DNA of 64,000 nt from Escherichia phage vB_EcoM_ESCO10, in the sequence record OM386655.1. One strand, given 5' to 3'. The number at the start of each line of letters is the position of its first letter. Position 1 is the first letter of the stretch. Made by a program: the position numbers and the translations under genes. Below the pieces are notes generated by a model, which made no database searches, had not been told where the DNA came from, and saw only the letters and a list, made by a program, of their open reading frames with translations. This document shows positions 59,724 through 63,908 of the stretch, one piece after another.

Positions 59724-59724
<1 letters not shown>
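59527..59724 (-). CDS. hypothetical protein (65 aa)
   Basis: ORF track to 59754; ATG 59724 forms TAATG overlap with pseT stop. Confidence 0.35.
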
Positions 59725-60924
<1,200 letters not shown>

Positions 60925-60928
<4 letters not shown>

Positions 60929-61407
60929 ACACCAAGCTCCTTATAAAGTTCTTCGCGACAGGTTTTAAGGATTTTACCAGTTTCATAAGCTGTGCTTTCA
61001 GAAACATCACCAAGTGCAGCGGCAGCTTGCATTTGACCATGGCGTTTAGCAGCATATTCAAAACTTTTTACTAGCTCACGAATACGTTCTTTTTCATTGT
61101 ATTCTCCAATAAATTCTGGATATTCCCAAACCGGGCGCATCATACGATACCACTGTTGGATGGTAATATAATTACTTCCATTCAAATTAATAATCTGTGA
61201 AGGCTCAATAGACCCTGGAGCATAAAAAGTTACCTGTCTTACTACATCAATACCGTCTACAATAGCCCAAGCAAAATCGAAAGTTGCCTTCTTTTCAATC
61301 GGCGTGCTTGCACAGGACCCTAGTTTAAGGAGCTTTTGTAATACAGGAGATTTAATACTTGAAATGTATTCAGGCTTAGCCACAAAACTGTTATCACGTA
61401 ATGTCAT
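60925..61407 (-). CDS. hypothetical protein (160 aa)
   Basis: ORF with ATG; ATGA coupling. Confidence 0.45.
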
Positions 61408-61572
61408 AATAATTTCCTCAATTTATAATCCGTAGGAGCATTATACTCTGCTCCCAAGAGTTTGTAAACTACTTTCCAAAAAGACCATGCATACACATGC
61501 TGAACACAATCCCAAAACAAAAGAATGCAGCGCCAAATCTAACAGCATCCCAACCACAAACACATGTCTCGA

Positions 61573-61863
61573 TCATTTACACTTCTCCTCTTTTAACCCA
61601 GAACGATAATAACATAACATAGATTTCTGGTCTTGTACATATCTTTTTACATCGTTTAACCAAATACGATGTTCTTGGGAGTCTTCGAACGGCATTCCAA
61701 CCCAAGCCTTACCATCGATTACCTTGACCTGCCACTTAACATTATGTTCGGCAATAGGTTGTGGCCATGAAGGGTGCAGTTGTTGCTTAGGCGCCACAGG
61801 AACATCCTGAGCACACCCGACTAACAAGCCAATAGATAACATTACCACAGCTGATTTAATCAT
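61573..61863 (-). CDS. o-spanin-like outer-membrane lipoprotein (PseT.2-like)
   Basis: 96 aa; signal peptide with lipobox MIKSAVVMLSIGLLVGC; Cys near C-terminus; ATGA overlap with upstream i-spanin-like gene. Confidence 0.65.
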   Translation of the reverse strand: MIKSAVVMLSIGLLVGCAQDVPVAPKQQLHPSWPQPIAEHNVKWQVKVIDGKAWVGMPFEDSQEHRIWLNDVKRYVQDQKSMLCYYRSGLKEEKCK

Positions 61864-62213
61864 TCTGTGGTGCTCCTGAAGTCTTTGGCAAAGGAATCGA
61901 AGGAGTTGTTGATTTGTTTTTCGACCAGTCCTGGCTTACTTGCCACCACGTGCGCCTTCTTCGAATCTTTACGGAGCTTTTCATTTTCTACCTTAATTTT
62001 ATCCATTCGGGCGTTCATTTCAGTAGTACGGAATTCAATATCAGCGTATTGGCCGTGAAGGTCTTCTAAAGCTTCAGCGTTCTGTTTAGCTGTTTGCTGG
62101 ATTGTTTTCAGTTCTTCAGTTAGCGTATCAATACGGCTTGATTGATACGAAATAAGACTGTAAGCACCTACTACAATGGCTCCAGCTAAAAGGTAAATAC
62201 TTAATTTAGACAT
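61860..62213 (-). CDS. i-spanin-like inner-membrane protein (PseT.3-like)
   Basis: 117 aa; N-terminal TM helix LSIYLLAGAIVVGAYSLI followed by coiled-coil region. Confidence 0.65.
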   Translation of the reverse strand: MSKLSIYLLAGAIVVGAYSLISYQSSRIDTLTEELKTIQQTAKQNAEALEDLHGQYADIEFRTTEMNARMDKIKVENEKLRKDSKKAHVVASKPGLVEKQINNSFDSFAKDFRSTTE

Positions 62214-62701
62214 TTGTTAATAATCTCAATGATGTCATCACGTGACAGGGAGTTAATAAGAACAGTTTTAGGATTTTCACACTGGATTTTGTATGTTTCA
62301 AACATCACACACAATTCTTCAGAGGTATGGTAAGGACTTGAAATACCGAGGCGATTAGTTTTATCACCTAGTGGGTCGCAAATCAAATAGAAAGTGATGC
62401 CAGCGATTTTAACATTAGGTTGACTGATATTAATGAACACGTGGGCATCATATTTGGAAAGGTTATTCTGAAGGAATTCGACCATTGCATTAACAGCTTC
62501 AGGCATGGCCTCACGTTTCTCTTCAGTATAACGAGTAGAATATTCTTTTTGTTTAATTTTCTTTTTAGCATTACGAGCCATCGTAACACGAAGGTCGGTG
62601 AGGTAACCAACTGCACGAGAACCTTTGAAAACTTGGATACCGTCAGTTGAGTCACCATAAGCCTTAACAATCATTTCGTTAGTGATAAGTTGCATGTTCA
62701 T
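62201..62701 (-). CDS. alc: probable Alc (transcription termination on cytosine DNA)
   Basis: 166 aa (T4 Alc 167 aa) between spanin pair and rnlA; identity by size and synteny. Confidence 0.55.
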   Translation of the reverse strand: MNMQLITNEMIVKAYGDSTDGIQVFKGSRAVGYLTDLRVTMARNAKKKIKQKEYSTRYTEEKREAMPEAVNAMVEFLQNNLSKYDAHVFINISQPNVKIAGITFYLICDPLGDKTNRLGISSPYHTSEELCVMFETYKIQCENPKTVLINSLSRDDIIEIINKCLN

Positions 62702-62759: not shown

Positions 62760-63908
62760 CTACTCTATCACAATTTCTTTCAAATATTTTTCAGGGATTT
62801 GGGCCTTATGATTTTTCAAGAACACAGAGTTAATCTGGTCTACGACAGTGTCATAATTAATACCGCCTGCGTACGCCTGCATAAGAATAGAGAACAAGCC
62901 AGGGAAGTCTTTGAGGATTAACTGTCCGGTAACGGCATAGTCCTTACGGTCACGCCCCTTGAGCTGAGAATATGCCGCTTCTAACAAGGCTAAAGATTGT
63001 TCTAAGTAGTCTAAATGGATACGTTCAAACGCATTGATTTTCTCGATGGCAAATGAATCCGTACTGAACAAACCTCGGAGGTCATCAGTTCCACCAGCCA
63101 CTACAACTTCAAACAACCGTTCGTTATTGTTAATGGAATCCTTAGTATGATGCAGTGCGCTATACCAAGCAGTTTTGAGTTTAAAGAACGTGCCATCTTT
63201 AAGTACAAAGATAAAGCCTTCAATACCCTCTTGTTTACGGATATCGCCAACAAAATCGCCTTCAGAGAGTTCGTAGCTTTTAACCAAATGCTTACGCAGA
63301 GCGCCATCTTTAAACAGTTCAGCGTAAGGGATATACTCGCCTGTTTCGTTATTACGAACGTTCAGTAAGATAAGGTTTGTTTCTTGGTAAGCCAACACAA
63401 TACGGTTAGTAGGGGCGACGTACTCAAGGTTGCATGTATATCCTGCTTTAGTAATTTCTTCTAAACGGGCAGCGAAGGCCTCGTTTTCAGGGAGACGAAG
63501 GAAACGTAAAGAATCATGCACCATTGATGAATGGATAGAGCCTTTAGATTTAACAGAAAGATACTGCCGGTCCATGAAGGTAGAAATCAAGGAACCATCT
63601 TCCTTAGCCATAACCAAGTCAATATTTTCCGGCGATAAATCCAGACCAATGGTCATAGGGTTTTCATCTAGATTAAAGAACTTTTGCATAGGACGAGCCG
63701 CAATACGTACGGGACCACTCTCGTCCATTTCAAACATAATGCCTCGGCACTCTAGTGCGCCGTCTTCCAACCAATCACTGTACGATGCATAGTTATAACT
63801 AAAGATGCGATAGTTGACTCCTAGCGCACTCTGGAAGTCTTTAAAGAAGAACTTAGATTTAGTCGAGTTTTTAACCAGGGCCATTAAGTTATCATATAAT
63901 TCAATCAT
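62760..63908 (-). CDS. rnlA: RNA ligase 1
   Basis: 382 aa; YRIFSYNYASYSDWL...ALECRGIMFEM, KEDGSL (ligase Lys motif), NRIVLAYQE match T4 Rnl1. Confidence 0.93.
   Translation of the reverse strand: MIELYDNLMALVKNSTKSKFFFKDFQSALGVNYRIFSYNYASYSDWLEDGALECRGIMFEMDESGPVRIAARPMQKFFNLDENPMTIGLDLSPENIDLVMAKEDGSLISTFMDRQYLSVKSKGSIHSSMVHDSLRFLRLPENEAFAARLEEITKAGYTCNLEYVAPTNRIVLAYQETNLILLNVRNNETGEYIPYAELFKDGALRKHLVKSYELSEGDFVGDIRKQEGIEGFIFVLKDGTFFKLKTAWYSALHHTKDSINNNERLFEVVVAGGTDDLRGLFSTDSFAIEKINAFERIHLDYLEQSLALLEAAYSQLKGRDRKDYAVTGQLILKDFPGLFSILMQAYAGGINYDTVVDQINSVFLKNHKAQIPEKYLKEIVIE

Follow-up and report, generated by a model that had tools for sequence, protein, structure and literature searches.

The best described relative of the locus considered here is the spanin pair of phage T4, the i-spanin PseT.3 and the o-spanin PseT.2: pseT.3 and pseT.2 by themselves are sufficient to complement lambda Rz/Rz1, and the function of the T4-type o-spanin depends on two Cys residues (Cys87 and Cys98 in T4, both essential) and on disulfide rearrangement (Kongari et al. 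2018, PMC6139136). Several Dhaka and Gapriver phages, including JS98, JS10, Bp7, VR7 and SP18, have already been placed in this T4 spanin family, and spanin genes with a 4-nucleotide (nt) overlap are counted there as 'separated' and not as 'overlapped' architecture (PMC6139136). A second described system is that of the ORFan cassettes of T4-type hyperplastic regions, which are bounded by promoter-early stem-loop (PeSL) elements (Arbiol 2010, PMC2839356; Comeau 2014, PMC4122927) with the promoter consensus TTTACW-N17-TAYWAT in T4/PST (Comeau 2014, PMC4122927). Here we describe the corresponding locus in a 64,000-nt stretch of Escherichia phage vB_EcoM_ESCO10 (OM386655.1; hereafter the window), where a T4-type spanin pair is followed by an open reading frame (ORF) of 35 codons, ORF35. 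By comparative criteria ORF35 is a real gene under purifying selection; its product is very probably a membrane peptide and probably not a spanin component. The features at the center of this account are:

61860..62213, minus strand: i-spanin gene (pseT.3 orthologue), 117 amino acids (aa); from the ORF list, phrog_739 and comparison with T4 PseT.3
61573..61863, minus strand: o-spanin gene (pseT.2 orthologue), 96 aa; from phrog_812, comparison with T4 PseT.2 and the lipobox
61585..61590, minus strand: Shine-Dalgarno sequence GAGGAG for ORF35, inside the last o-spanin codons (KEEKCK); from reading the sequence
61469..61576, minus strand: ORF35, gene for a predicted 35-aa single-pass hydrophobic microprotein (phrog_23289); from the ORF list, profile match, conservation and hydropathy

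A T4-type spanin pair in a Dhakavirus

A 1-kilobase (kb) query over the locus matched 103 phage records. The best match, at 96.3% identity, is Escherichia phage VR5 (Dhakavirus, Straboviridae), and because of it the window is assigned to a T4-like coliphage of the genus Dhakavirus. The i-spanin gene's stop codon and the start of the o-spanin gene are joined by ATGA at 61863..61860, a 4-nt overlap, and the o-spanin TGA is joined in the same way to the ATG of ORF35 at 61576..61573; the ORF list and the sequence thus bear out the coordinates and couplings of all three genes given in a preliminary description of this DNA. That description had also called the spanin pair overlapping, which does not serve as the name of its class, since such a 4-nt overlap is 'separated' in the spanin literature (PMC6139136).

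Its identification of the two spanins themselves is upheld by several kinds of evidence. The i-spanin matches phrog_739 'Rz-like spanin' (E-value 6.7e-35) and shows 46% identity to T4 PseT.3 (E-value 8e-27; T4 locus L046 of our comparison set). It has the N-terminal transmembrane segment (residues 4-22, Kyte-Doolittle maximum 1.93) and the coiled coil that had been proposed, the latter seen as a heptad register over residues 25-88 with 14 of 18 a/d positions hydrophobic and in weak profile matches to coiled-coil families and to LysB (Pfam and NCBIfam). The o-spanin matches phrog_812 'Rz-like spanin' (E-value 2.4e-43) and is 66% identical to T4 PseT.2 (E-value 4e-48). Its predicted lipobox, LVGC at residues 14-17 with Cys17 as the candidate lipidated residue, lies in the same LLVGC context as in T4 and agrees with the call made earlier.

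The likeness to T4 extends to the arrangement and the details of both proteins. The gene order alc, i-spanin, o-spanin is the same, the i-spanins are equal in length (117 aa) and lack Cys, and the two periplasmic Cys residues of the o-spanin, Cys84 and Cys95, align with T4 Cys87 and Cys98. The differences are an o-spanin of 96 aa as against 99 aa in T4, its linker being three residues shorter here, and a different next gene; otherwise there is nothing substantial. Thus, the two genes are plain orthologues of pseT.3 and pseT.2, and the pair adds nothing new to the T4 system. Their products, an inner-membrane-anchored coiled-coil protein and an outer-membrane lipoprotein, would assemble into a periplasm-spanning complex and disrupt the outer membrane in the final step of lysis.

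ORF35 is a protein-coding gene

The ORF35 product, MIETCVCGWDAVRFGAAFFCFGIVFSMCMHGLFGK, matches the phrog_23289 profile over its full length (residues 1-35 to positions 1-35 of 35, E-value 1.5e-15) and is a full member of that family, with no difference from it. The preliminary description had named conservation in relatives as a check on this ORF. By tblastn it is found in 86 phage records at 57-100% aa identity; no match covers less than 80% of the peptide, and residues 1-35 are spanned by all 60 of the matches listed. The exact peptide also occurs on 25 contigs of public assemblies, which additionally hold mosaic 35-aa alleles.

Comparison of 31 distinct loci, which yielded 28 distinct ORF35 nucleotide sequences, reveals the pattern expected of a translated gene. 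The ORF35 frame is open in all 28 versions, the other two sense frames never are, and the antisense frames are open in 0-75%. Variable sites are distributed over codon positions 1, 2 and 3 as 15, 16 and 31 of 35, and the only insertions or deletions are of a single codon (3 nt). The pooled Nei-Gojobori ratio of nonsynonymous to synonymous substitution rates (dN/dS) is 0.21-0.24 for ORF35, whereas the o-spanin has 0.25, much the same value, and the i-spanin a higher one, 0.45. The ATG is preceded, 8 nt upstream, by the Shine-Dalgarno sequence GAGGAG; its AAAGAGG core is kept in every full-length T4-like locus, and the hexamer differs in four of the compared loci (GAGGGG in L007, GAGGAA in L022, and GAGGAGCG in L017 and L021). 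The start of ORF35 overlaps the o-spanin stop in 29/29 T4-like loci, through ATGA in 27 and through 8 nt in VR7 and VR25.

The family is already catalogued under phrog_23289, with its function uncharacterised, and the exact peptide is known: it stands in NCBI nr as 'hypothetical protein' (e.g. WEY10244.1 of phage LHE83). The earlier statement that the ORF is unannotated is therefore right for some relatives (VR5, JS10 and VR7) and wrong for others, such as MN04, UP19, CLB_P2, MX01 (RefSeq YP_009324118.1), NC-G and P479, where it is listed as 'hypothetical protein'. In Yersinia phage vB_YenM_P8 (L022 1301-1408) and in vB_EcoM_ESCO10 (UPW37943.1) it is labelled 'thioredoxin', a name that we reject as unsupported, the product being a 35-aa hydrophobic helix with no Pfam match. 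What is new here, as judged from the sequence comparisons, is the purifying selection on ORF35, its mobility on its own and its evolutionary uncoupling from the spanins.

In a single protein, P0015 (156 aa, from one 1168-nt public assembly contig), a TAG to CAG change lets the ORF35 frame run on across the promoter region into the gene downstream, giving an in-frame fusion. Either an error in sequencing or a genuine read-through variant could account for it. Protein clusters at 90% that mix ORF35 with its 99-172-aa neighbors might be taken for hidden homology between them, but they are due to this one fusion and reflect no similarity.

A coding cassette captured by Kuravirus podophages

Besides its shuffled alleles in Dhakavirus and Gaprivervirus, ORF35 occurs as a cassette of ORF plus ribosome-binding site (RBS) in Kuravirus, which accounts for 4/86 of the ORF35 records. 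The Kuravirus podophages 172-1 (KP308307; L019 957-1073) and NJ01 (L028), with genomes of about 77 kb, encode an unannotated 34-aa homologue, MNEVCTGWDLIRFAAACFCFGIVFSMCMHGIFGK, that shares about 80% nucleotide identity with the window ORF35 over the aligned 76 nt, the differences being mostly synonymous. Among 89 Kuravirus records that match the flanks, only these two phages carry it. Alignment with Kuraviruses lacking ORF35 shows a precise 117-nt insertion, made up of codon 2 through the stop of the ORF and a second copy of the local RBS, TTGAGGTTAA(T/CT)ATG; therefore both the inserted ORF and the downstream gene keep an RBS. Around the insertion, close to the genome end, small genes on the same strand form a long array, and profile matches to lysis families are absent from all seven of its nearest neighbors. 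The spanins of NJ01 belong to a different family (the JH2/phiEco32 group). The presence of ORF35 alongside spanins of another family indicates that the peptide can work without T4-type spanins, and the movement of a bare coding cassette would be difficult to account for if selection did not act on the peptide itself.

This transfer also bears on whether the stretch is translated at all. It could instead be kept as nucleic acid, for example as a spacer, as a 3' mRNA element or as a portion of the promoter region, with the open frame incidental: ORF35 is very short, gene callers pass over it in several genomes, and a highly conserved promoter block abuts it. Such a reading sits poorly with the fact that ORF35 varies more than its flanks (nucleotide diversity 0.22-0.29, as against 0.08 at the 3' end of the o-spanin gene and about 0.05 in the block after ORF35). 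It sits equally poorly with the third-position variation, the in-frame indels and the absence of stops in 28 versions, and with a Kuravirus transfer that runs exactly from start to stop, duplicates the RBS and differs mostly at synonymous sites. Further, Rfam gave no match in the ORF35 region, and the region has no significant RNA structure. We thus regard a purely nucleic-acid role as hardly credible. The preliminary description had left room for a spurious ORF, an option dismissed by the conservation, the codon-position pattern, the dN/dS and the cross-family transfer taken together.

ORF35 evolves independently of the spanins

The same description had also raised a link to lysis, for which adjacency was the only basis. 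Homologues of the o-spanin are found in 1231 phage records, as against 86 for ORF35. In T4 the position after pseT.2 is taken by pseT.1 (75 aa), which resembles ORF35 in standing directly after the o-spanin gene, in being ATGA-coupled to it and in its likewise uncharacterised function, but differs in having no sequence similarity to ORF35 and, on a reading of its sequence, no hydrophobic stretch, ORF35 being a predicted 35-aa membrane helix. Because T4 and its relatives have the unrelated pseT.1 there, the position after the o-spanin gene is a variable one. The two loci differ further downstream, where pseT follows at once in T4, whereas here an early promoter and two extra genes come after ORF35.

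Pairwise protein distances point in the same direction: Spearman's rho is 0.83 between i- and o-spanin, 0.13 between ORF35 and o-spanin and 0.05 between ORF35 and i-spanin, a contrast in rho that is large, though the p-values are inflated by the non-independence of pairwise distances. An identical ORF35 allele can accompany both Dhaka-type and Gapriver-type spanins (e.g. in SP18 and MX01), which share 38% and 66% mutual identity. In vB_EcoM_005 (MK295203; L015 about 1640-1700), 99 nt are deleted and o-spanin residues 64-96 are lost, both essential Cys residues among them, so that this isolate may be spanin-defective; ORF35 is intact there, and the new o-spanin stop is overlapped by ATGA.

These observations have to be set against the proposal that ORF35 encodes a lysis accessory, i.e. 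a small peptide of the inner membrane by which the spanin complex or the holin pathway would be tuned. It could, for instance, bind the transmembrane segment of the i-spanin, or its periplasmic Cys5 could affect disulfide isomerisation of the o-spanin, and co-translation with the o-spanin would match their amounts. The overlap with the o-spanin stop in every T4-like locus and the predicted membrane helix agree with such a role, as does the conserved Cys5 near the N-terminus, given that the T4-type o-spanin needs two Cys residues and disulfide rearrangement (PMC6139136). The vB_EcoM_005 deletion can be read both ways: ORF35 and its coupling persist in spite of the loss of the o-spanin 3' end, and yet a gene retained next to an o-spanin devoid of both essential Cys residues fits a spanin-independent role. 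On the other side, about 93% of the phage records with this type of o-spanin lack ORF35, T4 pseT.3 and pseT.2 suffice in lambda complementation (PMC6139136), ORF35 alleles covary with neither spanin while the spanins covary with each other, and in Kuravirus ORF35 appears alone beside a different spanin family and neighbors without a lysis-family match. A lysis accessory is accordingly, in our estimate, an unlikely alternative. The suggested link to lysis is contradicted by the record counts, by T4 PseT.1, by the allele independence and by the Kuravirus transfer, and ORF35 is probably not a spanin component.

Predicted product of ORF35

The peptide reaches a Kyte-Doolittle maximum of 1.84 over residues 11-29, and AlphaFold2, run on the single sequence, models one helix over residues 3-33 (mean predicted local distance difference test score 83.8). 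Across 11 alleles the residues M1, E3, C5, G8, D10, F19, C20, F21, G22, I23, C28, G31, F33, G34 and K35 are invariant. They define an acidic N-terminal stub with the conserved Cys5 and a C-terminal half-helix with the contiguous invariant FCFGI and small-residue spacing (G22..S26, G31..G34), ending in a tail of a single Lys. Hydropathy and the predicted single helix agree with the small membrane peptide offered as one option in the preliminary description, and ORF35 very probably does encode a real membrane peptide. The short acidic N-tail and the terminal Lys lead us to infer an N-out/C-in topology, with the acidic stub periplasmic and the Lys cytoplasmic.

Several familiar classes of small phage or bacterial membrane proteins were considered and set aside. 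A lipoprotein (a second o-spanin, or a Cor/Llp-like protein) is disfavored since the lipobox pattern [LVI][ASTVI][GAS]C is not found in the peptide. A holin or antiholin is not suggested by one helix with a single-Lys tail, nor by neighbors that are alc, the spanins and pseT-region genes. As for the small hydrophobic type I toxins (Hok, Ldr, TisB, Ibs), Pfam and NCBIfam gave no match at E-values up to 0.1-1, and Rfam no antitoxin RNA.

Searches for relatives beyond the known phages were likewise negative. In an exhaustive search of 1.84 billion representatives the single true relative was a 34-aa allele, next to one spurious match to a repeat protein, and no distant family was reached; a large-database protein search with a GSGSG-padded query gave no candidate. 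Degenerate-motif DNA scans found no copy in 185,579 bacterial and archaeal genomes, only genomes from the same phage groups in IMG/VR, and in metagenomes two T4-like contigs with the same context and one chance match. Because these scans of IMG/VR, metagenomes and cellular genomes gave none, there is no cellular or prophage homologue to lend ORF35 a function. Literature searches found no study of it.

The promoter block and cassette structure

Directly after the ORF35 stop begins a strong early-type promoter, part of a nearly invariant 40-nt block (61430-61469, minus strand) that is shared across Dhakavirus and Gaprivervirus. The elements of this block and the genes around the unit are as follows:

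61440..61468, minus strand: early-type sigma-70 promoter TTTACA-17-TATAAT; 11/12 consensus match
61435..61455, minus strand: short hairpin GGGAGCA-(8 nt)-TGCTCC around the -10 box; minimum-energy and centroid folds
62760-63908, minus strand: rnlA; ORF list
62201-62701, minus strand: alc; ORF list
60925-61407, minus strand: 160-aa ORF of unknown function, phrog_4482; ORF list and profile match
60629-60928, minus strand: 99-aa ORF of unknown function, phrog_2364; ORF list and profile match
59724-60632, minus strand: pseT; ORF list

The promoter is predicted to drive the next gene (60925-61407) and to mark the 3' boundary of an alc-spanin-ORF35 unit. A promoter-like site lies upstream of alc, and the T4 late promoter core TATAAATA was not found in the minus strand from 56.3 to 64 kb of the window. 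For these two reasons ORF35 most likely closes an early alc-spanin unit as its last cistron, where it would be translated by coupling, through ATGA and its own GAGGAG Shine-Dalgarno sequence; its early timing of expression is accordingly inferred.

Over the window as a whole TATAAATA occurs 16 times as against 7.2 expected, 14 of these on the plus strand between 6 and 40 kb. Such a distribution fits a late-gene block in the opening part of the window, with an early region lying at the far end.

The arrangement resembles the PeSL cassettes in that a small variable gene borders on a nearly invariant early promoter with a stem-loop and a match to the PeSL consensus, and in that ORF35 alleles are shuffled between phages. 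It differs from them in three respects: the promoter block is single-copy in the 64-kb window, the hairpin lies across the -10 box without a significant fold (the 96-nt stretch folds no better than shuffled sequences, z -0.88), and the upstream recombination flank is the 3' coding sequence of the o-spanin gene, with no second PeSL. On account of the single copy and the non-significant hairpin we do not assign the block to the PeSL elements and note the resemblance only. The ORF35 cassette would recombine between the conserved o-spanin 3' end and the invariant early promoter, besides having been captured alone by an unrelated podophage.

The neighborhood varies in further ways. Between ORF35 and pseT the window has two genes (160 and 99 aa) where T4 has pseT.1 only, and among relatives there are one or two genes of 111-172 aa. 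The Gapriverviruses VR7 (L021), SP18 (L023) and P479 (L038) have an additional short alc-like ORF (alcb / VR7ORF243c) ahead of alc, and this extra upstream ORF suggests that alc, the gene for the host-transcription inhibitor, has been duplicated in part.

Functional interpretation and significance

Microproteins with a single membrane pass that exert their effect on a membrane protein by binding to it are known from both phages and bacteria, and include the 37-aa lysis protein of the single-stranded RNA phage M, which blocks MurJ, and the E. coli proteins AcrZ, MgrB and SgrT. ORF35 is comparable to these in size (about 30-50 aa), in its predicted single transmembrane helix with hardly any soluble domain and in conserved helix motifs of small residues. 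There is no sequence relationship, and the working principle alone is compared.

With this in view, we moderately favor the interpretation that ORF35 encodes an autonomous inner-membrane microprotein whose helix packs against, and thereby acts on, another inner-membrane protein of host or phage. The interpretation rests on the single helix with its invariant motif, on the predicted early expression, on the shuffling of alleles and on the capture by an unrelated coliphage. Under this proposal the product would be essentially one inner-membrane transmembrane helix behind an acidic stub of 10-12 residues with the conserved Cys, and would be an independent accessory cassette and not an obligatory spanin subunit. 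Its Gly/Ser/Cys-lined C-terminal half-helix (FCFGI..S.C..G.FGK) would pack on the membrane domain of another inner-membrane protein and alter its activity early in infection. Naming any particular target would be conjecture, held with far less confidence than either the membrane character of the peptide or its distinctness from the spanins.

Four points weigh against this proposal. The constant overlap with the o-spanin stop is also what would be expected of a lysis accessory. The test of allele independence uses non-independent distances, and an interaction through conserved parts of the spanins is compatible with it. The charges flanking the helix are nearly balanced, which makes the topology call weak. 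Finally, Pfam, NCBIfam, the PDB profile search and PADLOC yielded no homologue of ORF35, so that it has no characterised relative.

The same features might also be explained by a membrane-damaging or excluding peptide: copies of the ORF35 peptide would associate with one another to form a leak or pore, as small type I toxin peptides do, and could serve host shut-off or block superinfecting phages at the inner membrane (a role like that of T4 Imm) without one specific partner. Its size and hydrophobicity are typical of such peptides, the small-xxx-small motifs (G22..S26, G31..G34) could drive self-association, and the position in the early unit would suit this role; the shuffling of several alleles and the sharing of the gene by unrelated coliphages of one host would fit competition between phages. 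However, there is no similarity to any known toxin or exclusion family in Pfam, NCBIfam or PADLOC, the contiguous invariant FCFGI and three invariant Cys residues point to a specific contact and not to generic insertion, and a dN/dS of about 0.22 is purifying overall and gives no clear sign of an arms race. We therefore consider damage or exclusion as the general activity of the peptide to be improbable, and retain the autonomous microprotein with a membrane-protein partner as the favored interpretation.

The finding is real but largely ordinary, consisting of T4-type spanins and a catalogued microprotein gene. Nevertheless, ORF35 provides a worked example of how comparative data alone can show both coding capacity and independent mobility for a 35-codon gene of the kind often skipped by annotation pipelines, and the Kuravirus insertion with its duplicated RBS illustrates how minimal coding cassettes get grafted into polycistronic phage operons. 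More tentatively, and in our judgment with the odds against it, ORF35 may found a family of horizontally mobile phage membrane microprotein effectors, i.e. early single-helix peptides that would either bind one specific inner-membrane protein of E. coli and put it out of action, be it a transporter, a defence effector or an entry factor, or else keep out competing phages. Should a target of ORF35 be identified, the phage-encoded single-helix modulators of bacterial membrane proteins would gain a member; few examples of that class have been characterised, and such modulators are potential antibacterial leads.

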